Shown: positions 11,301 to 55,300 of the stretch, in pieces | Position numbering within the stretch: the stretch's first letter is position 1 | How the letters are laid out: the number at the start of each line of letters is the position of its first letter | Source of the DNA: Sphagnum compactum | Lineage: Eukaryota | DNA length: 64,000 nt | Assembly: GCA_965153455.1 (NCBI GenBank) | Contig: OZ234493.1 | Location: 9,042,213-9,106,212, forward strand | Reading direction: 5' to 3' | The notes under the pieces: model-generated | What the model was told of the DNA's origin: nothing | What the model saw: only the letters and a program-made list of their open reading frames with translations | Database searches by the model: none | Translations under genes and position numbers: made by a program

Positions 11301-14300
11301 AAATTGTTGCTTATTTTGCAGGCAAAGCAATTTTTGGTTGAAGAGCAATTTGAGAATCTTGAGCGAGCAGTCACTGGGGTAAGCATCTTCTATACTGTGT
11401 ACACTAGTTTGTATTGTAAAGGTTTTCATAGTGGTTATCATATCACTTGTGAGTTATATGATGTTCAAAGTTTCCTCCTGCAAATAATACTATGTTACTA
11501 TGATGGTGAACATGAGGACTGCAACTACTTTGGAGAGAGTGATTTGTCAGTAAAAAAGTTGTGTAATACTGCAGAAAAAATGACTGAAATCCAGTTCTTG
11601 AGATAGGCCTGGTGTGGTTAGTGGTCAGGTGGTTCTGGCTGATGGAACAGTTGTACGAGCAAAGCAAGTTCTCTCAAATGCTACACCAGCTGTTACATTC
11701 TTGGTAATCATCTCTCTACTTCCCAGCCATGTAATACTTGTTGCATCCATACATTCTGATGTCAGTACACTACTTGTGTCCTCAACAGAAGGTGTGCTCA
11801 TGAGATGAGGCATGATGAGGATCTCCTGTGATGTGATCTACTCTCTATGTAGGCCTCCCTATGTCTTCAGCTTAGATGCCTGCTTGTACAGGGACATGCT
11901 AAAATGAAATGAAGCTTACCCTCACAAGCTAATTGCAGCTTGAATGAGGATACAATTGACTTTTCTTATTAGGTATGTCTCTTGGGTGCAAGCCAACATC
12001 ATAAATGAGTCTCCCAACTGCTTCCAGAAAAACCCAGCCTGCAGATTTTATATAATGGTTTGCCTGAAATTTTTGGCAGATTATTATTTACTTATCTACA
12101 CCCACTGTCAGGAGCTGATGAAGTCAGCAGGTAGTCATGGCAGTGTGTCACTGCTATCCGTGATGAAGGTGATGGTCTGAAACTTTGTGGGCAATTCTCA
12201 TAAGGTTATGACTGCAATCTCTGTCATGTTACCTTCAAATTGTTGTTGAGGAGATTTCTCTGCAATTTCATACATATGTGATGTTGCAGAAGCTGATGCC
12301 TGATGATATACTTCCTGACGAGTTTATGACTGGAGTCAGATGTATCGACTACAAATCTGTATGCTCCCTTATCTTGCTCTTGTCATCGCTTGTAATGAGT
12401 CCTCCAGTTGGGCAGGAATAAGAGTGCACTCTGCAATCCTCTGTGACTATGGTCCTGCAACCTATGCTTCATTTGCCAAGACTGGTCAGTTGTAAAGACA
12501 TCTAAGATGCTATTTTGGACAGTCTATATTCCACAGGCAGTCATTATGATTTGTGTGAGTTGGGGGCTGGATGAAACTCAAACCCTGACCCACAGCTTGT
12601 TGTAGTGGTCCTACCAGTCAACCTGCAAATTAGTGAATTCTATGGATGCATGCCCAGGTTGACATTGCTGTTGGTTCATTGATGCATTCCTTGGGATGTC
12701 ATGAGATTAGTTTGAAGCTGAATGTGAATGAGGTATTTGGATGGAAACATCAGGGAACAACAAAGATCAACGTGGCTGTGGATACTTTACCAAGGTTTTG
12801 GGCATGTCCACACTCAGGACTTGGGCCTGGACCTGAGCATTTTGGGACTATCCATCTTGGTGCTGACAGGTATTGAATGTTTTTGTCTAAACTGCATCAA
12901 TTCCCTCTTTGAACATTCAAGGGCTTACAGTACTCATACATGTTACCATGCTGTGACTATCTGTGCGATTGGTGGTTGCAGCATGGATGAAATTGACATT
13001 GCCTATAAGGATGCCTTGAGAGGGAAACCATCCACAAGGCCTCTTATTGAAATGACAATTCCATCTGTCTTGGACAATACCATTGCGCCCCCTGGTTGTG
13101 TTCAAACTAACTTTCATGTATATATAAGGTGGTCTTATAGGAGCAAAGAACCTCTCTTGAGAGTGTGTGTTCTGACAACTAGGTGATTGAGAGAGTCTTA
13201 TTGAACAAGGTTGATGGTGTGATATTGGGCTTCAAATACTTGCAGAATCAGGGAAGGGAAATTTGAACTACTTTATCTTAGAAGTGCAAGATCTGTGGTT
13301 GATGTATTTTCAATGTGTCATTTTCTTTGTTTACCTGAGGTTTGTCGATCTACACAGCAGATCTCATGTCTGGCTGAATGATCAGGAAAGCATGTGATCA
13401 ACATGTTTGTACAATACACACCTTTCCACCTTACAGAAGGCAGCTGGGAAGACAAGGCAACTCGAGTATGTGGAACATCTCCTTAAGTCTTAAGGTGTAA
13501 CTGATTATGTACTGTAGTGAATTTGAAATCTGCCAGGGCAGTGCTAAGAGTTCAAGGTCTTGTAGAGAAAGCACAATTGACTATTAAGTGACCAACATTT
13601 TGTTTGACACTGCAGCTGGATATTATGGGTTCTGAATTACCCCTCAGCTGTTCAGGTCTCAGTAGCTAGCTTCAAATGATGTAGTCATCTGTTAGGGACT
13701 ATGTACTACATGCCTTAAGACTTATATGTGGTAGCCTCCTTGTGCAGAATGCATTTGCAAAAACATGTTTTGACCTGGTGGATGAGTACGCTCCAGGCTT
13801 TACCTCATCTGTTCTTGGTTATGACATGCTTACCCCACCTGATTTGGAGAAAGTTCTTGGCCTAACAGGTAAATTTCATCAGACCTTCCATATGCTGTAT
13901 CTCTAGTTTCTGTCTGAGTCTCTGGGCTGTCTCTCCTCCCTGCTCCAAGAGAGCTGTATCCCCTGGACTTTGTGGTTCTGTGTAAGATTGTCTGGAGTTC
14001 TCAATCACACTTTAGCCTCTCTGTCTCTTTATTTTACAGTCTGCCTGCTTGTTTATCTATAGTGGAGCCCTTTCTAACCACACATGGAACTTGACATAAC
14101 CCAACCCAGGTTGGATGGATGCTCCAAATAGTCTTAAGAAAGTTCAGAGTCCCCAACATTTGTAAAGATAAGGTTGGGTACCTGTCCTCATGCTGTAGTC
14201 ACTGAGTGACAAAAGTGTTTCTTGTAGCCTTCCACCTGAAAAGATGTTTGTTTGGAAGTTGGGAGTTGCATACATCAACTACATCAATTCTAGAAGGATA

Positions 14301-15284
14301 TGTGCAGGATGTCCCCATTCTCCACCACTACCCTCTACTAAGGCATCTCTTGTGCCTTCAGCTTGGGTGCTTGCTCTTAGTGGGGTGAGCTAAAATGAGA
14401 TGGAGCCTACCCTCACAGCTCCTTGCAGCTTAAATGAGGCTATGACTTGCTTTTTTATTAGCTATGCTGCTTGAATGCTAGCTCACATTGTGCCAGGCTT
14501 CCAGAAACTCAACATTAACGTACAATGCAGGTTTTTGTTTTATTTTTTTCCTAAATTTTGAGCAGATTACTACATACTTACAAGCAAGCCCAGCTTTCTA
14601 TATATTTAAAAGTTTGACAATTAAGTCAAGGCTGTTACAACCCTGGTGTCCATAATTGTGCACTACATCTGTAGTAGAAACCACTGTATGAAGTCCCACT
14701 GTCAGGAGCTGATGAAGTTAGAATGAAGGTGATGTTCTGATACTTCGTCAGTGACACAAGGTTAAGACTGCTCATTGTCATGTTTGTTGGTTTTGCTGGA
14801 ATCAACAAAACATTTTTCCAGTTAACTTTTTTTGGATTTTTTCTAAGCAATCACAGTGGTCTGTTTGATGGATGGCTATCAAATGCCAATATGGGCCAAT
14901 GCCTGTAGATAGTGGAGCTTATACTTAGTTTTGGTTATGGCTCAGGGGGATTGGCTTGATCTGATATATAGAGTGTATTAATCCACACAGGGGGAAATAT
15001 ATTTCACGGTGCAATGGGGTTGGATGCACTCTTTCTTCTTCGACCTTTGAAGGGCTGGTGAGTGAATCTCTTTTGTTATCTTATTTAAATATTTATTAAG
15101 TTGAGACACCAAAAAAATGTACAGTAGGGCCAAGACTGATGATCTTATGTCCTGTAGGTCTGGATATCGGACGCCTGTGAAAGGACTTTATCTGTGCGGT
15201 GCTGGTTCCCACCCAGGTGGTGGTGTCATGGGGGCACCAGGTCGAAATGCCGCTTCTGTTGTACTTCAGGACAGAACAAAATAG
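8380..15284 (+). CDS. PYROXD2: Pyridine nucleotide-disulfide oxidoreductase domain-containing protein 2-like (phytoene desaturase/CrtI-like FAD oxidoreductase superfamily), 17 exons
   Basis: Phase-consistent GT-AG exons: 8380-8510, 9031-9231, 9351-9512, 9652-9831, 9998-10055, 10445-10495, 10604-10686, 11086-11173, 11322-11378, 11629-11703, 12290-12358, 12754-12869, 12982-13094, 13386-13465, 13748-13868, 14991-15057, 15158-15284. Motifs include the N-terminal FAD-binding [64 protein letters not shown] and C-terminal [24 protein letters not shown]. The start codon and first donor site are less certain. Confidence 0.92.
11850..12235 (+). repeat. Intronic dispersed element, copy A (PYROXD2 intron 10)
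   Basis: Aligns by eye over ~380 bp with 14340-14790 and over ~180 bp with the reverse complement of 53115-53290. Core at 12101-12127 is CCCACTGTCAGGAGCTGATGAAGTCAG. Confidence 0.85.
14340..14790 (+). repeat. Intronic dispersed element, copy B (PYROXD2 intron 15)
   Basis: Shares GCTAAAATGA.ATG.AGC.TACCCTCACA..., GCTTCCAGAAA and the core 14695-14721 CCCACTGTCAGGAGCTGATGAAGTTAG with copy A. Confidence 0.85.
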
Positions 15285-18200
15285 TATTTGCAGCATGGGT
15301 GCTGGAATACAGCTTGCATTCATTGTGTGAAGTGTGAACCAATAGAGCTCTTTGAAAGCATCCCTGAAGCTGTGTGTCAATCTGAATTGGGTGATACTTA
15401 TAATAATCATGCATCTTGCTCTGAATGGGACTTGATTATCTGGTGTGGATGCTCTCTCTAAAAGTAATTAGAAGCAGAGAAGAGAGGTTCTTCCTTGGTT
15501 GAAGAAGTAGCTGTTGCCCCTAATGAAATCTGTAGCTTTTTGAACAAAGAAGTCAGCAGGCACTCTCCCTTGTCACTCAACATTCTTCTCATTTTAGCTA
15601 TGGTCATCGTTCAAACAACTTGTTGTCATCATCATCTTTTATTTGAAGACCTTGGTATTACCTAATAGTTTCATCCCTTACTTCTAATCTTCAGTTTGAA
15701 CATTGCCTTTTCTTTGGAGAAGCCTTGGTCCATGTTGACGACAACGCCTTTCTTTATCAGTGTAAATGTCGGCTGGCTTGTGACCTTTTGCAACCTTCTG
15801 TTTGTGCATGTCTTCTCGTGTTTAAACAATTCATCAATAAAACAAAGGATTGTTTTTAGGATTCAACTTTCAAATGTTCACATCATGAAACCTTGTGTGA
15901 CATTTTTTTCTAATGACTCTTCTAACATCCGTCAAACTCACATCCTTTCATGCTCAAGCTTATGTGTGCGAGCATCACATACTACAATTCCTAACACCAA
16001 ATTTTTAAATCACCTTTCCAATTAGGTTAAGGCTCTCACATCCTATGGTAGCCAATCTTCCTTGTAGTCAACCCATTGACCCTTTGTGTATCCATTTTGA
16101 ACCCATGGTAATGAGCACATGAGGATGATAATGCATTTGCCTCCATTGTTATTGCCCCAAGCTATTGGACATCCATGTGTGGATTTTGGGTGCACCCATT
16201 CAATTGATGGGTTGTTTTGAAGTCCACCCATCTACTTGTTGGGTTTCTTCTCAAAATATGAATGTTGGGTAACTGATTTAATCATACCTCGGTTATTTTT
16301 TTGGGGTTTTCACTTGCCTTTTTTATTTTAAAAAAATTGATTTGAAAGATTATGCAAGATTTGATTAAAATAAAACACATCAATTTTAAAATAAATCAAA
16401 ATTTTAATATAAAATTAATTTTTGAGATATAAAAGTTTTTAATTAACTTGATGTTATGTCTAAAAATTCAATAAGGCTTTTGATGAAAATGCAATAACAA
16501 AAATCATAAGCAAGTTAAATTTTAATTGATTCATTTGTTTGTATTGATGTTGCTTTTTATGCTATAAAAACTTATTATTGTGCTAAGATAGTAGACATGC
16601 ATGTGTGATTTTAAGTTTTACCAAGCATGTATGGGGCAAACACAACTAGTTCTCTAAGTTTAGGCTATTGCAAAGTTATTGAAACTTCCTCCACCTTAAG
16701 CTACTTCCAGTCTACTATAGGCTATCACTAGGCTATCCTAAGCTATCCTAGGTTATTTTACTTGTTATTTTAAGTTATCCCAAGCTACTATTAAGCTACC
16801 TTGGGCTATTATAAGTTACATTAGGTTGTTTTAGAATACCTATGCTACTCTAAGCTATTACTAAACTATTCCTAAAATACTTTGTCAATTTATAAACTAA
16901 AGCAAATAAATTTTTTTTCTAATTGTTATAATTGGTTAAACAAGGTTTTAGGAAATCAATTAATTGACAACTACTAGTCATGTACTTCTAATTATTATAT
17001 TAGTCAAGCCAAAAAACCTTTTTTTTACATAGTGATGGGTGAAAGCATGGTAATATATATATATATTATTCAAGATCCACTTTCTAAATATATAGCGATT
17101 CTCAACATAAGCACATAAAAAATAAATTCAAAACCTTTTTAAATCTCATTATGAAAACATTGGGGCATTCATTGAGTTTGTGGTACATTGGCTACAATAT
17201 TTTAAAAATTAGTATATAATATTTTAGTAAGTAACAAATAGGTTTGAAAATAATTGGTGAATATTGCGTTCTTCCTACTTTTTCATTACAAGTTGGATAT
17301 AATTTGATTATAATATGAAAAAGTTTAGGATGAAAGTCCACAAGTACATTTTAAGTTACCATTAATTTGAAAGTAAATTAAATTAATCATTTTATATGTG
17401 TGCAATCTACTTTGTAAGTTGTGATATTTTCCTAAATTTTGGTGATTATATTTAAACCTATTTTACACATATGGCTTTTAATTAGTTGTAATGAAGGATC
17501 AAATAACATGTTCATATTTATCATTGAATAATGCTTTTATATTCAATATATCAATGCATCTTGATGCCTACTTTCCATTTATGTTATAAAGATCATGAAT
17601 GGTATTTTACCATGTTTTCACCTTGGTCTAAATCTGCCACCCTATATGCACCTCCAAGGTTTAGAAAAAATATTGTATTTTGTAAAACATGCATTCCATT
17701 GTATTTGCACTTATGATTTTTTTTAATAATTCTATTTTTTTCTTGAATTACAATCCTTTTGAGGATAAGATGCCACCTTATGGATTTAAATAATATGCAT
17801 GTTGTTGTTGTGCCAATATTTATGTCATGACCCTAAGGAAATGGGATTATAATTAAGGCTCTAATGATGATAGTTTTTGAAATTGACTAAGAATTTTTAA
17901 AGTTGGCGCTCTATAAACCATTGAAAAGTGATTATATAATACATAACTAAAACTGCTTTCCAAATCAAAAACTTGAAACACAAGTTATGGCCATTTGAAA
18001 GATCACAAATCAAATTTTCAAACTGAACATTGACCAACAAATTGTCCAAGAAAGGGGTCAAATTAGCTTAATGATGTGTTAATGGGAATTAACTTGAAGA
18101 TCTAGTTATTGAATGAGTCATGACAACAATAACATAAAACTGGCACCTAAAGTGGGAGAAATAACCTTTCTTGGTTGTCCCAAAAAATGGAACATGGTGG

Positions 18201-22630: not shown

Positions 22631-22632
<2 letters not shown>

Positions 22633-22675
<43 letters not shown>
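22633..22675. repeat. (AT)n microsatellite
   Basis: About 21 perfect AT units. Confidence 0.95.
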
Positions 22676-22677
<2 letters not shown>

Positions 22678-27911: not shown

Positions 27912-28234
27912 AAAAAAAAAAAAAATCTTCGTAGAGGTTTCCGAGAGGGGGGGGGGGGGGGGGGGGAGTAGAAGAAGACGCGGTGCTTTATTTTTTCGTT
28001 GCCGCTCTTGTTTTCTTGGGACTCTGCCACCACATCAATGTGTCGAAAAACCATTCTAAAAAATAAAATCTAAAAAACCTTTCAAAACGAGCTCGTTGCG
28101 TACTTGACGTATCTAGCCAGAAGAGGTGGTCTTTTCGTGCCTTCGAAAACCCCCAAAAAAAGTGTCTGCAGTTCGGTTCTGGAGTGCAAGAAGAGTCGAC
28201 GGAAAAAACGCGTTCGTCGCAGAAAACCGTAAAG
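27912..28234 (+). promoter_or_regulatory. A-rich 5' leader region of PABP gene (candidate autoregulatory sequence)
   Basis: A14 at 27912-27925 and clustered A4-A7 runs at 28046-28077 and 28146-28226 upstream of the ATG. A-rich 5' UTR autoregulation is established for PABPC genes. The TSS was not determined. Confidence 0.5.
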
Positions 28235-31200
28235 ATGGCTCAAACACAAGTGCAGGTTCAGCAGCAAGTAGCACAGCAGGCAGCCACAGGCGCTGTGCCG
28301 ACTCAGTTTGTCTCCACTTCTCTTTATGTTGGAGACTTGGAGCCTAACGTGTCCGAGTCTCAGCTTTACGAGATCTTCAGCCAGATTGCTCCAGTGGTCT
28401 CAGTCAGAGTTTGCCGTGATCTCATCACCAGGCGTTCCTTGGGTTATTCTTATGTGAACTTCAACAATGCACAAGACGGTATGCCTCCGATGCTGGCTTT
28501 TCGCTTGAACATTCTTCTGCTAGATATTCAGTATGGAAACAGTATGCTCTGCCATGGTATGCACAGAAGCACGATTGTTTTCTCATCCTACCCAAGGCCC
28601 AAAGCCCTTGCAGGCCTGCATGAACTTGTAGATTGGCTTAACAAGGGTGCTAGTTTTTTGTTTGCCAGTTGGAAAATTCTTACAATGTGTTTTTATTGGT
28701 AATCGTCTGGTGTTGCTTACATATGTTGAGGGTTTAGATGTCAATTCGTGCCAAAGGTTCTTGACCTGAGATTGTTAGTATAGAACATTTGTAGATTTTT
28801 GTTTCTCTTGAAGTGGACAGATATTCACACTTGAGTGCAAGTAGTAAAGGTGACTAGCACTAGTCGAGTATCATGAGGTGTCTTAAAGGTTCCTCGGTGT
28901 GCTTTTCATTGATAACTTGCATATTGTTGCAGCCACTCGTGCTTTGGAGCTGCTCAACTTTAATCCTGTCAATGGAAAACCTATTCGCATCATGTTTTCT
29001 CACCGTGACCCAAGCATTCGCAAGAGTGGAACAGCCAATATCTTCATTAAGGTATACACTTCATTAACATGTCTGCACAGCCGATGTACAGATTATTGCA
29101 GGGAAACTTTTGGGTTCTCTGGGTCAATCAAGGAGGTAAGGTAGATCAGGGTCAAGGATTTCCAGTGTTCAACAGCTAAGGCAATGGTTGGAAACTTTCT
29201 TGTGCAGAACCTTGACAAGGCCATAGACAACAAGGCCCTTCATGACACTTTTTTTGCATTTGGTGCCATCCTGTCCTGCAAGGTGGCCATTGATGCCTCT
29301 GGTCAGTCCAAGGGATATGGGTTTGTTCAGTTTGAGCAAGAAGAATCAGCCCAGAGTGCTATTGAGAAGGTAAATGGCATGCTGCTTATGGACAAGCAGG
29401 TCTTTGTGGGTCCCTTTGTACGACGGCAGGAGAGGGACCAAGGAGGTGGTGCATCCAAGTTCAACAATGTTTATGTGAAGAATCTTGCAGAAAGTACAGG
29501 CGAAGATGAATTGCGGAAAGCTTTTGAGGCATATGGACCTATCAGCAGTGCTGTTGTGATGAGGGATGCTGAAGGGAGGTCTAAGTGCTTTGGCTTTGTT
29601 AACTTTGAGCATGCAGAGGATGCATCAAAGGCTGTGGAAGGCTTGAATGGCAAGAAGTTTGAGGACAAAGAATGGTTTGTTGGCAGAGCACAGAAGAAGT
29701 CTGAGAGGGAGGCTGAACTTAGGGCTAAGTTTGAACAGGAGCGTAAAGAGAGAATCGAGAAATATCAAGGAGTCAATTTATACCTCAAGAATTTGGATGA
29801 CACATTTGATGATGAGAAATTGAGGGAGTTGTTTGCAGATTTTGGGACAATCACATCATGCAAAGTGAGTTGGATCTGATTTTTGGTTGGTCAAAGCTTA
29901 TGGGTTTTGGTGTCTGCCAATGCTATGTTTGCTGTGACCTTTGATAATTATCATGTGTAACTCAGTTGTATTTTTGAAGTGGCGAGGTCTTTGTGATTTA
30001 ACTTTTGGAGGAATGTGACCTATCTACAGTTCCTGATGATGTTCTTTGAATTACAGGTGATGAAAGACCCTCAGGGACAGAGCAGGGGTTCTGGGTTTGT
30101 TGCGTTTTCGTCTGCAGAGGAAGCCACACGTGCTGTATGTTTCTTTAAATCTTTGTCATGTCTAGTTCTTTCCTTTATCTCTGGTCGTATTTTTCCAGAT
30201 CTGAGAGTCAGCATTCTATTTGGTGCATTTATTGTGGAGTTGTTTCTTGGTGATTGCATTACATGTGATGATTGAATTTCCTGTCGTAGTAGATCCTAAA
30301 AATGTATTCCTGATATGGCTCTTGTGGTTCTGCCAATTTTGCAGGTTACAGAGATGAATGGCAAAATGGTGGGGAGCAAGCCGTTGTATGTGGCCTTGGC
30401 TCAGCGCAAAGAGGAAAGAAGGGCAAGGTTGCAGGTGAGACATGAGTCTACTTCTCATCATGTTATCCCCTTCCTATAGATCCCCTTTTCTATTTTAGTA
30501 GGCAATTCACCCTAAACCATCAAGTCCTTTACAGTTTCTTTCTGGTGACCACCTAGTCAATGTGTCATGTGTTATGGAGTTGTCTTCTCCAGGTATGCAA
30601 CACCTAAATATAGGCTCTGAAGTGATTTATGTCATGTTTTGCAGGCACAATTTGCTCAGATGCGGACTCCTGTGGGACCTGCAGTTCCCACTAGTCTTCC
30701 AATGTACCATCCAGGGGCCCCTGGGATGGGGCAGCAACTCTACTACGGTCAGCCACCTCCAGGCCTGATTCCACCACAGGTTTACACACTCTGCCCAAAT
30801 CCATACAAACAAAGATTTCCTTTCACATAGGTTTTTGCAGTTGTGGCTTTAAGAGTTGATTTAGGTATGTTCATTTTTGAAGTTGTGTTGAATGCATTCT
30901 AATTAGACCCACATTTGTATATCTGTTGATACAGCCTGCAGGTTTTGGCTACCAGCAGCAGATGTTGGCTGGAATCAGGCCAGGGGGAGCTCAGATGCCA
31001 AGCTATTTTGTGCCAGTTGTGCCAAGGCAAGGTCAGCAAGGACAGCGGGCTGGAGGGAGACGAGCTGGTGGTGCACCTCCTCAGCAGCAGCAGCAGCCAC
31101 AGCAGCAGGTATGCCTTTCTCATTAATGTGAAAGCCTTTTCATAGAGTGGCTCCTCTCTGGGGAAAAATTGCTCCCTCAATATTTGGATGTGTGTTAACT

Positions 31201-32266
31201 TGCATTTTTGCCTTGTTCTTGTAATTGTGGTTCATGAGGGTCTGTCTGGCCTCTCTTCTGTGGGTGGTTGTATTTTTTAAGAACATAGGTCTTGAGTCCC
31301 TCCTCATCAAGTTTAGAAGTATTATTGCTTGTTTGGATAGAGTATGAGGCTGATGCCACTCATTCTCTTCTGTTTGACAAAGGCATATGTCATTTCTGTC
31401 ATGGGATTCCTTGCTGAGCTATTTGTGTGGTAGTGCCCTTGTTTGCTGGTAGGTGTCAGCATGTCTATGCTCCAAAGAGTCTTTTGTTTAGGTGAAGTCA
31501 GTCATCCTAGTGAAGAAAGTTACACCTTGATTACATGTACTAGAAGCTTGTGTGACTTGATGTGCTTCAATTTTTTTGTTGAACTTGGGTGAGGTCTTTC
31601 TATGTCATGTCTTAGGTTGAGGTTTCATTTGCAGGTGTATTATGCTATTGTCTGAGCTCTTAGTATATTTTGGTATGTGTTTGATTTGCACAGATGCTGC
31701 AGCGTGGTGGCAACCGCAACTTCCGTTATGCTCCAAATGCAAGAAACACCCCTGATTCTGGTCTACCTCCACCTGGTGTCATGGCTATGCTCCCTGCTCA
31801 ACTTGAGATGGGAGGTGTTCCAGTTGCAGCAGCTGATACTGGTGTCCCTCAGCCATTGCCTATCAGTGCACTTGCATCAGCATTGGCTTCAGCTCCTCTG
31901 GAACAACAGCGTGCGGTATGTAGTGTTCTAGAATCTGCAATTTTCTGTCTGCTCTCATGTATTGCATCTTTTTTTGAATTTCATTTTGGTTAAGAACAGA
32001 TGTAATTTAACAGGTTCATGTGAATGCAGATGCTGGGTGAGCAACTCTACCCCTTGGTTGAGCAGCTGGAGCATGATCAGGCTGGCAAAGTTACAGGTAT
32101 GCTGTTAGAGATGGATCAAACAGAAGTTCTGCATCTGATTGAATCGCCTGATGCTTTGAAGTCTAAGGTGGCTGAAGCCATGGAAGTACTGCGCTTGGCA
32201 CATGCGGCCCAGAATGTCCCAGTTGAGCAGCATCTTGCAGGCCTGTCCATGAACGATTCTGCCTAG
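28235..32266 (+). CDS. PABP: Cytoplasmic polyadenylate-binding protein (4 RRMs, Pro/Gln linker, MLLE/PABC domain), 9 exons
   Basis: Exons 28235-28478, 28933-29051, 29208-29864, 30057-30134, 30345-30434, 30645-30779, 30935-31108, 31694-31915, 32030-32266, all GT-AG and in phase. Motifs include [46 protein letters not shown] and the MLLE domain LGEQLYPLV...[23 protein letters not shown]. Confidence 0.97.
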
Positions 32267-33633
32267 ACATGGCAAGCCTGCATACTGGGTCCTCTATTCC
32301 ATTTGCATCTGTCAGGTTGACAATTCAAGGACTTCTCAATTCACTGAATGAGAGTGATGCATTTGCATGACGAGGCAGCAGGAAAGTGTTTTCTTTGTAG
32401 ATGCTTTTAGGTGCTTTCTTCATGTGGGTTCTGGTCAAGCCCTGGCTTTTTCAGCAGGAGGTTGTGGCCTGTCTCATTGTGAGGTATTTTGTCTGTTGGC
32501 TGCTGAAAGAAATCTTAAAAGAATCAATTTCCTGTGAACTGCCTGCCTGTCCTGTATATGGATTAATTCCATAATTGATATGTTTGGTCCTTTTGAGTTG
32601 ACAAAAAAATGTGGTGCAGAGCATAGGACACAGAAATCACCTTCAAAGATGCTCTTTTGATTTCATGCACTAATGGAGAGTGCTGTGTGGCTTGTACCTG
32701 TAGTTGATGTAATGGTGACTTGTCACTGTATAGCAGTTATCTATGAGGACAAGCTAACTGCAGTGGGTGTGAGTTACAGTTGGCTATCCCAATCTAATTC
32801 TTGTTTCCTTTAGTTTGGATGGTACTGACATAATGGTGCTGATAATTACCTTGGCAAGAAAGAATTTATGTCTTCTTAAGGGAGGAATAATTCTGTTTGA
32901 TATCATGCCCTTAAGATACAGTAGAATCTTTTTGCCAGTTCTTTGTGTATAGGGTGGATCCTCAGGTGTGGGCATTCTGGAAATCAGAGCCCATGCAAAG
33001 GACAGTAGCTAGCATGGGCCTGATTTTTGTTCTGCCTTGCTTTTCTTGGGACTTTTCTTGATGTTACCCTCTTCTCAGGGCTTTATCCTACACAGAAAGC
33101 ACCAGCAAGATTTTGTCTTTCTGCTCCAATGGATGCAATTTGATTTGAATGTAGGTTCCAGATTTTCGAAAAAGATCCAATGCAAAAATGGAATATCAAG
33201 CAAAAGTGAGCAGAGAAGCATGAAACAAGAAACATGGTATTTACAATCACAATCAAAGCCGCAGCACAACTTGCCAAGGAAAAAATGTGCCTCTGGTAAT
33301 GAAAAATGAGAATAGAAAAATTTATCAAAGACTAACTAGTGGCAGCCAGTACCTAATCAAGTAATTGTAAGTGGCAAAACACATGGCAATTAGGATTCAA
33401 CAAACCTCAAATTACTCTGCATCTAAACTAGTTTCTGATCTCCTCGTTGGAAATAGATCAAACCCCCCCTCCCTCTGGAACACTTGTGATCCACTCAGGC
33501 ATTAGGCGTTCAAGTGAATACTTATTATATAAAGTCATGTGATATCAGAGTTCTCAGATAGTCAAGCACTGCTTCAAGAAATCGTGCAAACGAGATGGAA
33601 GTGATAACCAGCTGCATGCATTTCATCCAAGTC

Positions 33634-36717: not shown

Positions 36718-37059
36718 TGCACTAGAGCACCTTCAAGCTTTTTAGATAAGAAAATCCGTTTGGGTCGAAATGGAGGGAGAAATAGACCTCGGAAACTGAA
36801 TTTGCTGAGATGTTCAGCTCCCTCCTTTGATCCCCAGAAAACGTTAAATGAGCCAAGGTTCCTAATTGCAGGCAATTACAAAAGTAGTGCTGCATTTCTT
36901 TTGTCCCTATCTGGCCTTTTGCCCATCCAAGATGTGTCTGGTAGAAACTAGTGACCAGACACAGTTTTGGGTCCTGCTATAAATTTTGGGCCTGTAATGG
37001 ACAAAATTTCCTCCCCGGCTCCATTATTTTAGGCAGATTACCTTGCTTGTAATTTTCAT

Positions 37060-44900: not shown

Positions 44901-45819
44901 TTCTTAGGCCATTTTTTCTTTGTTTTGCCGCAACTTTGGTCACAAGCCCAAGTTTAAGGTCATGACACATATGGGTGTGATATTGATATTGGATCATTTT
45001 CAACATTTTCATATCATCATAGTCCTAATATTGGATTTATATTGAGCCTAATATTTTTTCATTTGTTTTAAGGTTCATTTTGTACACAAATCTTGACAAT
45101 ACAACCATGTTTGATGCATTCATGTGGAACTAGGTGAAAAATAATGTATGTGATGATGTAATATTTATTGCATCTTGCATTAACCAATGAGATTTGCTAA
45201 CCCACAATCCATGAAACTTTGCTTCAGCTATAAAAATTCCAAAGTTTCATTAGGTTAATTAACAACACCTTAATCAAAAGCCTTGGAACATTGAAACACA
45301 AAAGTCATGGTTCAACATATGGCATGAAAAAATCTATTCACAAATAACATCATGGTTTTTTATCATCACAATTTGTTCATCTATTTGGATATTGGCTATC
45401 TAGGTTCCTTTCATGATGGGTCCATATTGTGGTAGTTTAAGCTCTAGAAAGCTTGGTGGTAGTATTTTGTTCACACATATGACTACTTCAAATATCTACT
45501 AGGTGGCTTAGGCTATTGGGGGGAAAAAATGTTCATCATCCATTGGATTAGCAAGTGAAAGTGAGCTCTTAATGCCAACCAATCTATATATAATCATAGC
45601 ATACAACAAAATGCATGTAGGATACAAAGTCAAAGTGAAGTGAGGAATAGGAAATTTCAAGGATAATGGAGGTGTTTGATGAAAAGTATCTGATTCAACA
45701 AAACCCACTTCTACATTGTAATGTTCAAATCTATAATTTTTCTTAAGATTATGTTGGATTCCTCCATTTCTACCCAAGATCATGAACAAGTATGGGTTAG
45801 AAATCAAATTATTTCAAAG

Positions 45820-46170
45820 CATCATGTTGTCACACTCACAAAAGTCATTAGATTCCAAAATGTTTCAAAATGTCATACTATCACTCACAAAAAGTCATTG
45901 GATTCCAAAGTTCGTCAAATGATCACATTGTCACACTCACGAAAAGCAATTGAATGCCAAATTGCTTCAAATTGTCACACTGTCACACTCACAAAGGGTC
46001 ACTGGATTCCAAAGTGCTTCAAATGTCACACTATCACACTCACAAAAAGTCATTGGATTCCAAATTGCTATCACGTTATCACACTCTAATAGACTCATTG
46101 ATTCCCAAATTGCTCAAAGCGTAGCACTATTACAATCACCAAAACCTACTAGATTTGAAGTCAAGAAATG
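45820..46170 (+). repeat. ~45-bp tandem minisatellite
   Basis: About 7 units of TGTCACACT.TCACACTCACAAAAAGTCATTGGATTCCAAA...CTTCAAA. Confidence 0.9.
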
Positions 46171-46179
46171 TCAAACATG

Positions 46180-46460
46180 ATCGGTCTCTACCTTGCTACA
46201 AGTAGGAGAAAGGTTCAAACATGTTCAAAATTTAAGCTTAATTTGAACATACCCTAATTAGGTTTCTACCTTGTTGTAGGTAGGAGAGAGGTTCAAAAAT
46301 GTCAAGTTTGCGCTTCATAAGTGTCAAATAGATCCCTAATTAGGTCTCTACCTTGTTGTAGGTAGGAAAACAACTCAAACATGTCCAATTTAAGCTTAGT
46401 AAATCATACAAACCCTAAATAGGTCTCTACCTTGCTGCAAGTAGGAGAGAGGCTCAATAA
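46180..46460 (+). repeat. Four ~80-bp tandem units with palindromic core
   Basis: GGT(C/T)TCTACCTTG(C/T)T(G/A)(C/T)A(A/G)GTAGGA at ~46183, 46261, 46342 and 46423. The linkers are mutually similar. Confidence 0.85.
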
Positions 46461-47989
46461 CTATCAAACAGACTCCCCAATGTGGAAAACCACCTCGACA
46501 ATCAAAAAACCCCCCAAATGTTGAGCTCTTCAATGAAATAATCGAGACAATCGTGAACGATTCCGTGAGCTTCTTGAGTGAGATCCACTAACAACATGCT
46601 TCTTAATTATGCCTGGAAATTGGAGGGAGAATAGAATTCAAAACTCTAATCCTCACCTCCAAAGCTTGAGAGCTCCTTGAAAATTGGAAATGTGAAGGCT
46701 GAAAAATCTTTGTGCAAATTCGTTCTCCAACTTCTGAGTGCTCCACTTTGCGAGCCACTCCACTCTGTGGTCGAGCTATTCAGGTCTCCAATACTTTCTT
46801 CTCCGTGCCCAAGCTGGAACCACACAACTCCACGTTAATCCGAGTTTTGTATGTACCAACATGTCAACGTTAGATTGCTGCCATGTGGTTCCTTGTCCAA
46901 ATTCATCTTCCGAGAAACTGGAGAATGGTTTCAGAACCTCCATTGGTTGATTCTGGTTGCTCAGGCTTTAAATGGTTTAGGAGATCATCTAGTTCGGTTG
47001 CAGCCATTATTGGGACTTATACATATTATGGTGCAATTAGCTTCTGTATTAGGTGACGGTCGTTGGGAGGATCTGGCCAAAAGGCCGCTGGCCACAAGCT
47101 GGGTCTAACCAATAGCTCATTTTCTGACATAGTTGGCACTGGGGAGAGATTCTGCCATGTCATTAGGAACTTTGTAGACTAGTTGCTAGACCTCACAATA
47201 TTCCATGTGCCAGTTCTTTGCATTGGAAGCAGCAGCTGACCCTAAGATGCATAGGGTTAAGGGCAATATCTCTCCTAAGTGATAATTCCATTGTCTATCT
47301 TGCATCCTACCTCCACCGTCATCTAACAACTCTAACTTGGAATAGGTGCATGGAATACACTGTGGCCTTTGAAGATGTGATTGAAAATCTCATTCAACTT
47401 CAAATGGAACCCCGTTGGAAAGACAATTTGAGACTGTCAGGGACACTAGAATACAAACATCACTGAGACATGTTATGGACATGGCATACTGCATATTGCA
47501 TATAGCTTCAAGCGACTTTCAATATTTCAGCTGATTGCAGTAAATTCTTAGGTGCCTCATGGCACGTATTTAGAGGTGCTCACAGAGTGACAATCTGTGT
47601 GTGCAGATTTTTTGATGTGATTTCAGTGTATCCACAAACCATGGGAACCCTCAAGACTTGGGATGCTACATGTTAGTCTCAACAATTCTGAATTGGGTGC
47701 TGATATTCACCAATATATGTCCAAGCTCTGAAGTCTGTTCTAATCATGCTGAACCTGTGATCAGCCCCATTGATTTAGTCTTCTTGTAGACACTGCTCTG
47801 GGTGATTTCTGTCCTGAAATTTGTCCCACCAACAGATTTAACTACCCTGATCCTAAAGCCTGAGATTCAGTTGATTTGTAAAGATATGCACTTCAAATCT
47901 TGTTTCAACAGTCTAAGTTCTGTTTCTTATGGGAAAGCTAGCAGTAAATTCTTCTCAAAAAATTTCTCCCCATGCTTATCTACTAGCAA

Positions 47990-50808
47990 ACTTGGATTTG
48001 GAGATCCTTATGAATAGGGACTGAGCAGTATGACTGAAATCTTGGTTGAACACCGTTCTCCTTCCTTTGAGTTGTGATCTAGTACAAGTGACCAGTCTGA
48101 GAAAAAACGCTGCCCTTCTTTTAGGTCTCCAACGATGCTGTTTTCCCTATACATCACACAAGAAACAACCTCATGCTTGGATTGTATTTACTACCAGAAC
48201 ACTTGCTGTGAAAACCCACAACAAGCTCCAAAACATCAATACATGCAAGTTTATTTACAAGAACGTTGGATGCATATACCTTAAACTTTTCAGGTGGAGA
48301 TGGCTTCCAGCATTGAGAATGCCTGGAGGATTTGATGTGTGATGGCAATTTTTTCTGTGCAATAAAGTAACAGACACACAAGTAAGAATGGTTTTTAAGT
48401 CAAGCAAAGTATGTAAAAGTAAGATGATTCACAAAGGAAGCACTGAGCTTACAGAGATTCTTGCTCAATTGTGATGATGCCTTTGAACTCTAAATTTTTG
48501 TGCTTAGCTGCCTTATCCAGCTTGTTTCTATGGTTGCGGTTCTGATCCAGTTTATGTAGGGGTCCATTTGGTTGAGAAGGCATGCTGATCTTGTCTGAAT
48601 CTTTCCATCCCAGCTTCTCCCAGGTTAGTACTTCAACCAAATCTTGTGGAACTTCATCAGGGTTCTTCAATCCAAGGTAACAGTCATTGCCCCTATTACT
48701 GCCTGTTTGATATTCCTCAACCCCATCAGGATTCACACTTGTGTGACCAATTAAATTTTCAAGATGTTGCTGATTCTTGACTAACATCTGCTTTTGGTCA
48801 TGTAACCAAGTCTCCTGCAACCGAAGAGCACTCAAACAATGTCCTTTTGTAACTCCTTGTGGAACTGGAGCTTTAAGCTTATTGCTGTGTGTGGAGTCAT
48901 CAGATGGGCCAGGCAGTTAGTCTGCTGTTGATTCCAGGGCTAGCATAGTTTTTGACTCCTCTGTAACAATGGCCAGTGGGTGAGCCAGGCTGAGTTTGAG
49001 CTCAACTGGGCACCCAAGTGCAATTTGAAAAGCATGACAGGTGCTGCTCTGAAGCCTCCCAGCTTTTGCTTTGTGTTCTGGATGCTGAAATTCCAGATGG
49101 GAAACTGCATAGGAGTTATCTATTACATTCAATAAGCACTTTATCTCAGAGCCCAGTGTTAAAACGTGAATGATGTACAAAGAATCAGTCACTCCTGGTG
49201 TAACAAAAGGATGTGCATTGTAGCCAGCTACAACTTGTAGTATGGGGATACAACTAGCTCCAAATTCTAGTCAATTTAAGTGTTCGTTAGTGGAAGTAGT
49301 GACTTGTTGCATTCATTTGGTTGGGAACTTTAAGTTGAATATTTTGAGCCTGTAGGGAGCTTTCATGGGAGCTAGACAAAGGATAATTCGGTTGGTAAAG
49401 AGAATACAGGCATGATGCAAGGGACTTTTCCCCCCAACAAGAGAAGACTGCTGCTCACCTTTTGCAATACAGAGAGAAATCAATGTGCCATGGGCCTGCA
49501 AGAGCTGTCTCAACACATTTGACCGGCACCCTTGGAGAACCTTCATCCAGAGGTTTTCCAATTCGTTGCATGCAAGGACTTGGAAGTCATGGAATTCAGC
49601 TATTTGAGTCCCATCAAAAAGCACAGTGGGGCAAATTTGTGTTGTTGCCACCAAAGGACTCTTTTGGGATTTGTCTGTTGGTGACCCTGCAGGGTACACT
49701 TTGGCTTGTGATTGGTGTACTGAAGGCAGCAGCCTTTTCTTGCCCTCTGAATGATAGAGGCAAGTTTGGGTGACAGTCTCTTTCTTTTCTTCAATGACAG
49801 CAGTAGCTGGCAGTTTGGGTGTAAGCATCACATGTGAATTTTGGGGTTCTGGTGGTCAAGAATTTGATTTCCAGAAGCTCTAATCTTGGGGGTATAAGCT
49901 TCTGCAGCTGTGATTTTCTCAAGGGTATCAAATGCAATAGGGCTTGGTGACATGCTTGTGTCCAAAGAGGATGGAAGGTATGATCGATCAGGGGCAAATT
50001 GCAGGAGTGCTGCAGTAAGCCTTGTTGATTGGTTGTTTGAGACACGTAGCTGCTTCTCTGATTCTGCCAGGACCTTCAATGCTTGCTGTAAACGTCGTTG
50101 TTCTGCCTTCTGTGCTGCAAAACAAACAAAAACGATGTTTAAGACAAATTCAACCTTCTGTAGGTGTTGAACCTCTTGATAAATTTTACTCCTCCCAGAA
50201 CAAGAAACAGACCATGCAAAGTACAGATACAATAGGCCAGGGCATACAAAAATTTCTTTTGAAGAATCCTTTTTTGTGCATTGCTCAGTGTATGTTAAAG
50301 ATCCCAGCCAAAATGTTGGTAATCAGGGAGGCAAGCTGTGTGACCAATGACAAGGCATCCACCCCCAAGTCAAGAAGCTCCCGCATACATCTCACAGTGT
50401 TTGCCGTGTCTGCTGAAAGTGCCAAATCCAGCAGGTCCAGCAACTTGTTATCTGGAACTAGCCCCACTTGCAAAACAATTGGAATCAGACACAGCCTATT
50501 CAGTTGCAGAGTACATCCAGACCAATGCCACATAATGGCATGATGATGCAGAAGTTCACATGTGCTGAAGACAGACTTACAAGCTCTTGAACCATGGCTA
50601 ATGAAACGTTCCTGTCCCAAAGGCTGAGTTGATCCAGCATTCTCTCTGCATCATGAAGAGAGCCATTAGCTCTTGCTGCAGTCAATGATAGTGCAGCCTC
50701 CTCCACCTCAAGCTCATCTTTGGTAGCAAGGGACTGCAGCTGAGTCACTATTTCCACCTCTTTCACTTTTCCAAAGGGAGCTTTTGGCACCCGAGAGAAT
50801 TCCCACAT
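47990..50808 (-). pseudogene. STI-like: 5'-truncated, intron-retaining STICHEL-like (DNA polymerase III gamma/tau-related) pseudogene
   Basis: Exon remnants ~50808-50581 (ANGSLHDAERMLDQLSL...VQEL), 50467-50248 (VGLVPDNKLLDLLDLALSADTANTVRCMRELL), 50114-49459 (RLQQALKVLAESEKQLRVS...LTAALLQF; ELENLWMKVLQGCRSNVLRQLL), 49119-48453 and probable small 3' exons ~48350-48281 and from ~48146. Disablements: acceptor CAA in place of CAG at 50470-50468, in-frame TGA 50287-50285, frameshift near 49830, in-frame TAA 48919-48917. No N-terminal or P-loop exons upstream. The 3' end is approximate. Confidence 0.85.
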
Positions 50809-52364
50809 TGCCCTATGACGAGCAAATTACTAAACATATAGCAACTCTGTTGTGAGTCAGGAGCTGCCGGATAAGCTGAGCATGTTTTACTGCACATTGA
50901 ACTAAATCAAAATTAGAACAAAGTGAGTGCACAACAATTATATCAAAATCGGATGTCAATGTGCCTTCAAAGTTGGATAGAGCTACAATGCACCTAACCT
51001 TGCACTATTCCATTATTCATTGCATGGAAGATGTGAATAATAGGGATGTTTCTTGTCATAATCAATGAGTCATGATGTTTAATGGTATGTGCTTAGTATG
51101 CATTGTAATTGAGTAAAGCCATCAAAGATTGGAGTATGAACAATATTTAAGCTTGCTCTATCTTACTACATGATAAAACATGAACAAAATTACTTCGAGC
51201 AAGACCCCAATAGAAAATCATAGACAAAATAATCATTATGTATATTCTTACATTATATTTGCAATGCTATGGATACATTTGCTAGTTTGGAATACAAACA
51301 CCGTTAAAAACTTGCAACCGACATTAATTTCTAAGAAAATGTAAATTGCTCTGACGTCATTTGAGGCCTCAATTATATTATCGACATCCAAACCCCATAC
51401 AAAAGAAATTCATTGTGGATTTGAGAAGCTCTTATGCTCTGCTTGAAGTTGTAATTTTTTTGCTTTAATGTGCTCAAAAAACCCAAAGTTGTTTCATAGG
51501 TAATGCAATTCTAAAAGGGCTATTGATATATAGCCCTAAGATGCATCTTGATTATTGTTGAATTATTGTTGAGCTCATGGCAGTCTCCTTAAACGATAGT
51601 AAACAAGACAATTGAAATGATTTAGGTCATAAAGCGCTACTATGGGATTTGAGGTGTTAATGGTCATTGTTTACAGAATTGAATTTACATCTGAAAAATC
51701 AGGAGGGAATCCCTTTTCCATCAGGATCTTCCATTTTCTAGTGGGATCTTAGATTTGTTCATAGTGGATTCTGAGTACTTCTAGGACTTTTGCAGACCAT
51801 TAGGTTGAAAAGAAAGTGCACAAGTCTCAGGCATGTGTAAATTGGCACCAATACATGTTGCCAAAAAACAAACATTGCTGGCACAGACAGTACTACTCAA
51901 AATCTACATAGACTTACTTGACTTCAACAGGGTTGGATAACCCAACTCAATGCTTTTCACCTGGGAGCTCAAGAGCCGATGAAACCAGAGCACCACATCC
52001 ACATACAACAGGAAAAATAGACCTCTTTCTTTCTCAATTCCAGGCACTTAGTGCTGATGAGAATATTTAAACAAATATGCCAAAAGAAAAAAGAAAAACC
52101 CCCTAGTTTCCAAGTGAATTTGGTGCTTTAGGAAAGAACTATTACAAGCCTGGAACCTCAGGCATCCACTGGCGTATGATCCTTTTATGCCCTGGGTCTT
52201 GAATCCTGCATTGTGAATACACCACATATCACATAGCCAAGAGACTGTTTGATCATTACAGAACCAATTCTGTAGGGTTTTGCTACTGAAAGGGACAAAA
52301 GTTTGCCTCTTCCAATGGCCTGAAACCTGCCTGCTGTAGCCAACTGAATGCATTTGGCAAGGAC

Positions 52365-55300
52365 TCAGAGATCAAGAAGCAGGCGTCGAGGGTCCTCAAC
52401 TTTGTCCTTAACTGCACGGAGGAATAGAACTGCCTCCCGACCATCAATTAGGCGGTGGTCATATGTGAGGGCCACATACATCATAGGTCTCACTACAATG
52501 TTTGTGCCAATAACCACTGGCCGCTTCTGGATTGAGTGCATTCCCAGAATTGCCGACTGCATGAATCAACACAATCACCAATAATAAATTCCAGGTAACT
52601 CATATAAAAAAAATGTCATTAGACTAAGTTCTAACAGTCCATGCTCCTCAACTCTCAAGCAAAAAGGTATCTGGACTCTTAAGCTCAACTCCAGAAACTG
52701 TCAGAATCAGGCACAGATTAGATAATAATACCATCTAGTTCTCCAGTCTGGATTCTGAAAGCAAAAAAGTCTGGGACTCTCAAGTGCTCTTCATTCCCCG
52801 AACAATTGAAATTGAGACTGACACAAGATTGAACTGCTAGAATGCATCCAAGAAAATGTTATGAATGTATCTAAGGCTGAGTGCATTTTCCTTCCATATG
52901 TACTTGATCCTTAAAATCACAGAAAAAACTGAATATCATTTATAAGAATAGAGAAATCTCCATTCTCACAATGAAGAAAAAACCCACAGCAAGGTTAACA
53001 CTTCTTCAAGAAGTCACAGAAAGCTCCAAACTAGGAAAGACAAAAACAAACACAAAACAGAAAAAACAAAAAACAAAAACCCACGGTGTGAACAAAAGTG
53101 CCAGTCTCACACTTGTTCAGGGACCATCAACAGTAGTATGTATGATAGTGACTTAACTACCATAACTTCCCCACTGACTTCATCAGCTCCCTACAGTGGG
53201 TAAAGGCCAGTGAAAAACACCAACCTGCGAATCGAGTTTCTGCTGCAAATCCGGAAGCAACGGGAAGACTCAGCCATACTACTGGCTAGCAACAGATCAC
53301 AACACAAGGACAAGACAAAAACAGACAAACAGAAAAGGAAAAGCAGAACTTTAAGGGAAAGGACAGCATGGAACAAACACAGAAAAAACTGAAGAGCAAT
53401 TTGAACAAGAATGAAAATTTCACTGGAAGTTCAGTGACCATCAATGCAACATGTATGTTAATGACATGCGACATGTATCAGCAATGCAATATAATCTCAC
53501 ATTTGTCAAAACAGACTTGGGAGTGTGTAATGAAACAATCAGTGAAGATGTGTTAGGATTTTGGCAGCATCCTACCTGGGGTGGGTTGATAATAGGCGTG
53601 CTGATAAGACTTCCATAGACACCACCATTAGAGATGGTGAAGGTGCCACCAGCCATATCATCAATTGAAATGCTGCCATCATTGGCCTTTTTCCCTAGTG
53701 TGTTGATTGTCTTCTCAATTTGGGCAAAGTTCATGTGGTCTGCCCCACGGATCACAGGCACCACAAGACCCTGCAAATACCAACTGCATTGGTTATTGCT
53801 GAAAGAAAAGGAGATAACATCTCCACCACAGTTGATATGAGACTAATGCATACAGCCTCACTCTATACTGTCTACACTAGCATGCAACAAAAACTGGCAC
53901 ATTCCTGCCAGTACACATACCTTGGGACACAAACATCCTTGGTTCACACTTTATTTATTCGCTAGATGAAGCCATATAACAAGTTGCAGAGGTAGAAGCT
54001 GTCTCACCTTGGGAGTACCAACAGCAATACTGATGTCAACATAGTCTCGATAGATGATATCATCACCATCAATTACAGCATTCACTGAAGGCAACTGCTG
54101 AAGCGCACTTACTGCTGCCTTCACAGCCAAACAGGAAAGCCAAAAAGAATTCAGACACACTTTCAACAATTCGATCAAGTCACAAGGCATTATTCCCCTT
54201 GGTGAATGTTGCTGCAATTCTTAATAGCAAATATGAACACAGAATGTCTGAATGGATTCTCAGTTTCTGGAAATAAGTCACAAGGATCAATCTGTGCTTG
54301 GAGTAAATCAACATAATTTGAGAGCTTGGCAACTAGATAAGGCTCTGGCTAAGGACAGAGTATGTGGGGATAATGAGTTTTATTCAGATGATGGAGCAAA
54401 ACTGTTGAATGGTACCAACCTTCACAAATCCAGACATGAAGCCCAATTTCACCCCATGTTTCTCTTGGAATGCATCCTTGTATTCAGCACGCATGTCCAT
54501 CAAGTTGGTCCTGAAATCCAATACATTCAGACCATAAGGTTCACAAGACACATCAAAGTACACAATTCTGTCACTCTCTTCCCATGGGTCTAGGTCACAA
54601 ACACCCTCTGCCTGAAGGATTACAAGACGCTAAAGAACATCAAACATAGGACCTTGGCTCTTAAACAGCCTGAAGCAGAAAATGCAGAGCACGAGGGTAG
54701 TGGAGCCTATGTCCATTATGGACATGGTATCAAGATAACAACAAGAGAACAATGTGCTCAGTCTCATAACCAAATAAATGTTCATTTGCCAATATAATAG
54801 ACAAATGCACACGGATACCTCACAGCAGACCATAGTTTTAGAGCACAAAAACATACATATCAATTTCATTGAAGGTTGTAAGCAGAGCAAAAGTGTTCTG
54901 AGAGTCCTTCAGCCGGGTGGCAACCCGTTTCCGCAACCGTGTCATTGGAATCTGGCAGATTTCCATAAACTGATGTCAACTAGGATAATAACAAATAGCC
55001 AAGGAAAGCACTACCAACAAATGACTAATGCAGACTGAGGACTAGCAAAGACAGGAAGCAAGGAAGATAACAAGAGACAATTTGAATGCAAATTAACCTA
55101 ATATGCAGACCAATTGACTGGCCAGTTCTCAACAATTAAGCGAAAGAAGAGCCCAAATAGCCCTCACCCTCCGCTCTCCACCTTTAGGTGGAAGATGCAC
55201 TTCTGTGCGAGATTGGCTTTGGGAAGCTGCAGGTGCTGGTGGCACTTTCTCTGGAGTCTTAGGTGGAGTCTGAGGAGGTGGCTGGGGAGCAGGAGCTGCT

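Follow-up and report, generated by a model that had tools for sequence, protein, structure and literature searches.

Three introns in a moss genome share a sequence that most likely stems from a Penelope-like retroelement and its short noncoding partner

Introduction

Three introns of two unrelated genes in a 64,000-nucleotide (nt) stretch of the moss Sphagnum compactum (GenBank assembly GCA_965153455.1, contig OZ234493.1, positions 9,042,213 to 9,106,212 of the forward strand; hereafter the window, whose own numbering is used below) carry the same noncoding sequence, each time in sense, with a 27-nt core that has hardly changed amid flanks that have diverged. What is this sequence, and why has its core been kept? 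A first-pass annotation, made from the letters alone, offered several answers: an intron-resident RNA that is small nucleolar RNA (snoRNA)-like or short interspersed element (SINE)-like, or a shared splicing or cryptic-exon element, with co-regulation of two mitochondrial genes as a plausible consequence. In this study, we conclude, with a probability that we put at about 0.88, that the shared sequence represents insertions of one moss retrotransposon family, consisting of a Penelope-like element (PLE) and a short noncoding derivative. We place the family among transposons and not among host RNA genes because it is multicopy, is linked to a reverse transcriptase (RT), has a sharp 3′ end, and shows 5′ truncations and tandems.

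Results

The window copies belong to a multicopy family

The 14-mer GGAGCTGATGAAGT from the core occurs exactly three times in the window (at 12111 and 14705 on the + strand and at 53177 on the − strand), against 0.32 occurrences expected, and none of 100 shuffles reached three. The core is the best-kept part of the three copies, which we call A, B, and C: it is identical at 26 of 27 positions between A and B and at 25 of 27 between A and C. Copies A and B are colinear over four blocks, of which three are 74 to 75% identical and the fourth is the 27-nt block bearing the core; copy C shares with copy A 46 nt around the core at 83%. The annotation's description of three related sense copies in introns, with a near-invariant core amid diverged flanks, is thus accurate, as are its finer details: the downstream TGATGGT..CTGA, deleted internally in B (35 nt following the core), the B-specific hairpin (14709-14718 with 14742-14751), and the CCCACTG/CAGTGGG arms of C. 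Its extents (11850-12235, 14340-14790, and 53290-53115) were correctly placed and are exceeded by the true ones (Table 1). A profile search of both strands of the window returned only A, B, and C and an 89-nt partial piece adjoining C upstream, in agreement with the annotation, which had seen no further copy. At copy C this arrangement includes the internal repeats 53465-53429/53152-53115 and 53416-53375/52956-52915.

Beyond the window, we scanned public metagenome contigs for exact matches to the 20 specified positions of the core and obtained at least 123 stretches with 126 matches, many of them on contigs of 10 to 100 kb. Merging pieces at least 95% identical left at least about 104 distinct loci. 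Among the core matches listed, 56 resembled copies A and B (family T1), and 54 together with most of 16 variants resembled copy C (family T2). In contigs from a DNA run of the same species, summed word depth over copy A was 305 to 926, compared with about 9 beside it, which is a sign of repetition and not a copy number; the more diverged copy B had no such pile-up. Raw Hi-C DNA reads (run X21) came to 0 to 3 per bin, too thin for a copy number.

Metatranscriptome contigs of another run (X16), about 97% identical to the window, cover positions 13748-14985 and 11674-11927; they run through copy B and the entire intron around it, cover copy A in its 5′ part, and represent either unspliced RNA or DNA carry-over. 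A close relative thus has both insertions as well.

T2 is most likely the 3′ end of a Penelope-like element

T2 copies share one precise 3′ end, beyond which their flanks are unrelated, and the number of loci that still align upstream of T2 falls stepwise (for example 74, 58, 43, 29, 14, and 5), out to more than 1.8 kb. Stepwise upstream loss behind a fixed 3′ end is the signature of 5′-truncated retroelement copies, and open reading frames (ORFs) upstream of T2 carry RT-like motifs. One such ORF of 290 amino acids had 40 protein matches, the nearest of which, of moss type, are 86 to 98% identical, while the distant ones are proteins of 900 to 1000 amino acids annotated with PF00078 and/or PF01541 (homology E values of 1e-18 to 1e-9). 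When nine of these relatives were rescanned, six had a PF01541 GIY-YIG domain near the N terminus (about residues 27 to 240) and four had RVT_1 near the C terminus (about residues 614 to 939). The moss protein P0002 is colinear with one relative, P0006 (E = 5e-47); a further moss protein, P0046, which was reached through the N-terminal part of P0002, matches residues 2 to 304 of P0006, GIY-YIG stretch included (E = 3e-24). A CxC motif, judged by eye and unscored, stands at the aligned place in the nuclease-RT linker, both in the moss proteins and in the ORF of locus L015. The T2 ORF stops about 250 nt before the core, which leaves no room for a C-terminal nuclease. T2 is therefore most likely the 3′ untranslated region (UTR) end of an autonomous PLE with a putative N-terminal GIY-YIG nuclease and C-terminal RT, of the Naiad/Chlamys type.

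T1 is most likely a short noncoding partner of the same element

T1 is about 450 to 500 nt long and noncoding and has a 5′ part of its own. Its profile of 446 positions, built by iterated nhmmer searches from copy A, gave 158 hits in the scanned loci and the window. T2 aligns to T1 positions of about 130 to 371, that is, along some 240 nt of the PLE 3′ UTR, and in some copies again at the terminal motif, in which both families end; the PLE 3′ UTR is thereby matched by the 3′ two-thirds of T1. The starts of T1 copies scatter over many profile positions, a sign of 5′ truncation; full-length copies begin with a further stretch of about 45 nt, a leader that copy B has and copy A lacks. T1 is old and diverged, its copies being about 75% alike. 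Head-to-tail tandems are present at five loci (L004, L001, L027, L071, and L029), and one such junction also occurs in the DNA and RNA of the window species. A "go-back" joint runs from 12272 to 12102. In a scan for target-site duplications (TSDs), 11 of 61 copies scored at least 8, compared with 6 of 298 mismatched controls; 5 of the 11 belong to the L004 tandem, and the other duplications, of 8 to 15 nt, lie at L060 (15 nt), L122, L040, L079, and L111 and around copy A of the window (8 nt). We infer that T1 is mobilised by the PLE, whose protein would presumably copy it in trans via target-primed reverse transcription.

Three further observations concern T1 loci. At L004 (about 800-1270 in element orientation), the last 70 to 78 nt of T1 (profile positions 376-444) are repeated six times head to tail, so the 3′ terminal unit can evidently amplify on its own. 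At the tandem junction of L029 (about 1965-2025; also in runs X22 and X5), a 36-nt linker sets the reverse complement of GGAGCTGATGA, a part of the core, immediately before the core, and the resulting 11-bp hairpin is absent from the normal family sequence. Two long reading frames adjoin T1, one of 513 amino acids at L008 (55-1593, +) and one of 522 amino acids at L071 (2455-4020, −), without a Pfam match at E ≤ 1e-5.

Short length, lack of coding capacity, 5′ truncation, target duplications, and a 3′ part in common with a longer coding element are also what a tRNA-derived SINE with a long interspersed element (LINE) as its partner would show. An ordinary SINE of this kind is nevertheless improbable. 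A search with ARAGORN for a tRNA-like head gave no hit in the window or in 10 loci that hold full-length copies, Rfam gave none at E ≤ 1 in 12 loci, and the element ends in neither poly(A) nor a simple repeat. Proteins related to the coding part combine GIY-YIG and RT domains and not an apurinic/apyrimidinic (AP) or restriction-enzyme-like (RLE) endonuclease, and head-to-tail tandems are typical of PLEs according to Craig et al. 2021 (PMC8557442). T1 thus has the SINE features of short length, target duplications, and a 3′ part common with an autonomous partner, that partner being a PLE and not a LINE. Of the annotation's paired label, "SINE-like" survives in this form, with A and B as nonautonomous copies and C as the 3′ end of the autonomous partner; "snoRNA-like" does not.

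The core is common to both families and decays in inserted copies

The core is unchanged between the T1 consensus and all T2 lineages, and in T2 it lies within the 3′ UTR. In minimum-free-energy structures of T2 copies, three hairpins can form around it. The hairpin just 3′ of the core stays paired across the T1/T2 split, with 93.8% of alignment cells paired and two pairs changed on both sides (AU in 12 and GC in 12; UA in 16 and CG in 11), and none of 500 shuffles reached its covariation score.

To follow copies that had been found independently of the core, we used 16 that were recognised solely by their nearness to a scanned copy. Their core carries substitutions or deletions and is 80.4% identical to the consensus, compared with 76.0% overall, which ranks it 36th of 285 27-nt windows; because any copy whose core was intact had been tallied as a primary hit, this set is biased, and all it shows is that decay of the core is possible. 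Most probably the core acts in cis within the retroelement RNA, where it would serve the PLE protein in recognition, binding, or priming. Source elements of T1 and T2 alike would retain it as their other sequence drifts, and inserted copies would decay. The role given to the core here is one that we infer; for an animal PLE, PMC11167929 describes reverse transcription that initiates internally and a binding region elsewhere, where the ORF begins.

A snoRNA reading would take UGAUGA of the core as box C and a downstream CUGA as box D of an intron-encoded, host-selected box C/D RNA that is processed out of introns in many genes. Typical sequences of both families do have UGAUGA and, 65 to 70 nt downstream, CUGA; the copies are intronic and in sense, as intronic snoRNAs must be; and CCCAC and GTGGG flank the region in copy A. 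Yet no terminal stem adjoins the boxes (the 5 nt before UGAUGA are not complementary to the 5 nt after CUGA), 6 of the 14 T1 rows in the alignment have lost CTGA, the core is broken in the 16 copies described above, and the T2 motif sits in the 3′ UTR of a retroelement ORF. Rfam returned no match at the gathering score in the window, at E ≤ 10 for A and B, or at E ≤ 1 for 12 well-kept loci. We consider a host snoRNA, or another structured host RNA, very unlikely.

The A and B introns are spliced normally, no listed joint uses these copies as exons, and an introner origin is unlikely

Copies A and B lie in two introns, separated by four others, of a + strand gene that begins with a FAD/NAD-binding Rossmann domain; the annotation's PYROXD2 label holds to the level of the oxidoreductase fold. 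Both introns were delimited with RNA-seq reads of the same species label, and the limits of the copy C intron were taken from Pfam matches of its flanking exons, which correspond to PF00198 positions 106-171 and 171-232 on the − strand and place copy C in sense. Copy A ends 13 nt ahead of an exon, which means that its intron must now have both its branch site and its pyrimidine tract within the element. Reads over copy A are largely partial matches from other copies of the family: 147 of 371 fit only in part, and all 15 reads at position 11931 carry another letter.

If the copies regulated splicing or formed a cryptic exon and in this way co-regulated their host genes, they would be intronic and in sense, as they are, and the branch site and pyrimidine tract within copy A would suit such a role. 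Against this stand normal GT..AG joints across both the A and the B introns (17 and 19 reads) and the absence, among the joints listed from poly(A) RNA-seq, of any that uses A or B as an exon, with four weaker joints outside that list. The copies decay like neutral DNA, and the genes beside or around them share no common function: they encode, among others, Exo70, histone, Piwi, G-beta, ClpS, ATG8, PEP carboxylase, uricase, MCM, and UDPGP proteins. The cryptic exon and the co-regulation of mitochondrial genes that the annotation had suggested are both hard to sustain on this evidence, and a splicing role of this kind has very little probability left to it.

Introners of algae and fungi place near-identical intron sequence in unrelated genes with a strong sense bias. 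The same pattern in the moss, together with a copy A that accounts for 442 nt of a 586-nt intron and stops 13 nt short of the exon, could suggest a mobile element that creates the introns it occupies. The ends of the moss element, however, are not intron ends, and it does not bring splice sites. We asked whether family sequence continues from copy A up to the 5′ splice site, in the form of a tandem or pseudo-long terminal repeat (pseudo-LTR), so that the entire intron would be derived from the element, and rejected the idea: the 131 nt between that splice site and A show no significant similarity to family junctions (320, 341, and 66 of 500 shuffles scored as high). Without the element, the copy A intron would still have about 135 nt; copy B occupies about 570 nt of an intron of 1122 nt, and copy C about 550 nt of one of 1020 nt. 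Other copies (L006, L019, L021, and L056) are found past the ends of genes and thus not within coding regions. An introner origin is accordingly most doubtful.

Table 1. Positions of the family copies, their parts, and their host introns in the window
Feature	Position	Strand	Basis or remark
Copy A intron, FAD-oxidoreductase gene, 586 nt (442 of them element)	11704..12289	+	GT..AG joint, 17 reads, stranded poly(A) RNA-seq
Upstream TSD of copy A, 8 nt, TGTGATGT	11827..11834	+	Read directly; TSD scan
Copy A, near full-length T1 without about 45 nt of 5′ leader	11835..12276	+	nhmmer, profile positions 2-446, E = 1e-126; blocks colinear with B
Copy A, word depth on contigs	11835..12276	+	300-2300, versus about 9-45 beside the element
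Core, copy A, 27 nt	12101..12127	+	
Downstream TSD of copy A, TGTGATGT, 5 nt before intron 3′ end	12277..12284	+	Read directly; TSD scan; RNA-seq intron end 12289
Copy B intron, 1122 nt	about 13869..14990	+	GT..AG joint, 19 reads (cut +4), stranded poly(A) RNA-seq
Copy B, older T1-family copy with 5′ leader	about 14289..14855	+	nhmmer, leader alignment, and A-B blocks
Copy B, nhmmer matches	14331-14581; 14695-14855	+	Profile positions 2-265; 271-440
Copy B, internal insertion, 114 nt, with partial core duplicate	14582-14694	+	
Core, copy B, 27 nt	14695..14721	+	
Copy C intron, last intron of 2-oxoacid dehydrogenase acyltransferase (DLST-like) gene	52557..53575 (approximate)	−	PF00198 exons
Copy C, 5′-truncated T2, last approximately 470 nt (3′ UTR) of probable PLE	52913..53383	−	nhmmer, T2 profile, E = 3e-142; 3′ terminus as in other T2 copies
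Core, copy C, 27 nt	53174..53200	−	
Partial T2 piece adjoining C on its upstream side (partial tandem, pseudo-LTR-like)	53377..53465	−	nhmmer, E = 0.0013

Insertions are strongly biased to the sense strand of genes

For a view of orientation beyond the window, we scanned 443 ORFs of the flanks with Pfam, outside repeat hits. The set comprised 295 of the 296 ORFs of at least 90 amino acids (one was a duplicate) and 148 of the 242 of 70 to 89 amino acids, the latter taken from loci still without a hit and chosen by a crude composition score. A host-gene exon was present within 2 kb at 32 distinct loci, and the element was co-oriented with it at 29 and opposite at 3 (L006, L021, and L008), a bias with a two-sided binomial p of about 3e-6. 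In the three opposite cases the element is beyond the C-terminal end of the gene. Elements firmly inside genes are in sense at 10 of 10 loci, as are the three window copies. The annotation's "always in sense" thus holds at scale. It had also set transposon-like and randomly oriented copies against a functional RNA; the copies are numerous and transposon-like, and their orientation is far from random.

Base composition gave an independent check. The introns of the window have a T-over-A skew of +0.13 on their sense strand (11 of 11 at or above zero). In the repeat-masked flanks within 1 kb, read on the element strand, this skew is positive at 75 of 83 loci (38 of 43 for T1 and 37 of 40 for T2), reaching about +0.3 in the first 25 nt past the 3′ end and staying at about +0.1 as far as 500 nt. 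The bias is as strong in old copies as in young ones. At L010, L038, L050, and L073, where exon starts were inferred from Pfam matches, and at copy A, the 3′ end of the element lies about 15 to 170 nt upstream of a host exon, which hints at insertion next to 3′ splice sites.

Discussion

The fixed 3′ end and stepwise 5′ loss of T2, the RT-bearing relatives of its upstream ORFs, and the 3′ sequence that T1 has in common with T2 identify the intron sequence of the window as probable debris of a PLE and its noncoding partner. The conservation of the core, which had made the sequence a candidate intronic structured RNA, is then explained by constraint on the transposon and not on the host, and that candidate falls.

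Several results weigh against this reading. The moss proteins themselves are silent in Pfam: six upstream ORFs matched no family at E ≤ 1, P0001 to P0004 matched none at E ≤ 10, and P0046 showed no GIY-YIG at E ≤ 1, so the assignment to PLEs relies on homology to proteins that do match. The 2-kb flanks hold neither a single full-length element nor one contig with both the nuclease and the 3′ UTR, and the nuclease part is joined to the 3′ UTR solely through overlapping protein clusters. Most copies have no clear target duplication. As for the RNA, one or two events account for the compensatory changes in the hairpin 3′ of the core; pairing reaches 89.9% of cells within T2 lineages, but covariation there is weak, with 10 to 69 of 500 shuffles reaching the observed values, depending on the measure; and folding energies of the core region were ordinary in the five copies evaluated (z = +0.11, −0.86, −0.10, −1.35, and 0.00). 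Finally, a strong sense bias is unexpected for a passively scattered retroelement.

The sense bias is real, and its cause could be a strand-asymmetric target, such as T-rich tracts, or the rapid loss of antisense insertions. We offer as a tentative and rather speculative idea that the family is a retroelement specialised for transcribed DNA, with an integration step that picks the T-rich sense strand of introns or is coupled to transcription. Such a step, aimed for instance at the pyrimidine tract before a 3′ splice site, would yield genic insertions almost wholly in sense, and these may be tolerated there. An antisense bias is usual for intronic retroelements. A strand-specific, intron-seeking habit, if true, would be the opposite and is not described for PLEs; our literature search found no description of this moss family, nor of such a sense bias in introns among PLEs. 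If the bias reflects target choice, it would give a handle on how the little-understood nuclease and RT of PLEs pick strand and site, and if it reflects selection, it would tell which sequences moss introns tolerate.

The closest known systems are the Naiad/Chlamys PLEs. In Craig et al. 2021 (PMC8557442), these are given an architecture with pseudo-LTRs, tandems, tails, and no canonical hammerhead; nonautonomous derivatives share the PLE 3′ end, and for mosses "a small number" of BlastP hits is mentioned. The moss family resembles them in relatives with the order GIY-YIG, CxC linker, and RT, in a fixed 3′ end with 5′ truncation, in partial tandems of pseudo-LTR type, in the lack of a canonical hammerhead, in AT- or T-rich target sites, and in nonautonomous partners. 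It differs in being dispersed in genes, whereas the spike-moss families are specific to ribosomal DNA. T1 is much like MRC1 of Chlamydomonas, which PMC8557442 presents as a short noncoding element with a PLE-shared 3′ end, pseudo-LTRs, and multicopy head-to-tail insertions; the likeness is one of description, and T1 is diverged and largely genic in sense.

In SINE-LINE pairs, the short parasite keeps a 3′ RNA element recognised by the partner's RT while its remainder diverges. T1 and T2 follow the same logic, except that T1 has no RNA polymerase III head (tRNA, 7SL, or 5S) and its partner is a PLE and not a LINE.

Vertebrate non-LTR retrozymes (Li, Clavereau and Pollet 2026, 10.64898/2026.07.22.740005) are proposed in that preprint to be nonautonomous derivatives of the PLE pseudo-LTR region, arranged in tandem. 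As described there, they differ from the moss family in having active hammerheads and in being enriched in intergenic DNA and excluded from introns, whereas the moss family lacks a hammerhead and is often intronic. That the moss core is itself half of a hammerhead or retrozyme-type catalytic centre is the least probable explanation of all: the CUGAUGA of the core does not vary, copy A shows a downstream CUGAAAC as well as CCCAC/GTGGG arms, and PMC8557442 reports hammerheads for canonical PLEs and a "half core" within the 3′ UTR for some Naiad/Chlamys elements, but the GAAA is private to copy A (the T1 consensus reads CTGACAC and T2 CTGAAC), only 5 nt separate the would-be cleavage site from CUGAUGA and so allow no helix I, no helix II hairpin is present, and no Rfam hammerhead model matched. 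The CUGAUGA...GAAAC candidate of copy A was thus rejected by the family consensus together with the Rfam result.

If the PLE reading is correct, a true moss carries a dispersed PLE with an N-terminal nuclease, some copies of which look recent by their mutual similarity. Evidence for such PLEs has so far come from green algae, spike mosses, slime moulds, and animals, with no more than hints in mosses. The moss would also carry an abundant noncoding partner family, and both families would be genic and almost exclusively in sense.

Other features of the window

Elsewhere in the window, three regions drew attention. On the + strand at 28000-32300, ORF pieces resemble by eye a poly(A)-binding protein, with RRM-like exons and a C-terminal PABC-like exon. 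At 45800-46480, two tandem arrays adjoin each other, with units of about 52 nt (45805-46114) and about 80 nt (46180-46481). A 44-bp AT-rich tandem repeat array occupies 60100-61235 in several blocks; its final stretch (61126-61235) runs in the opposite orientation, giving arms of up to 110 nt that are 76 to 86% complementary.

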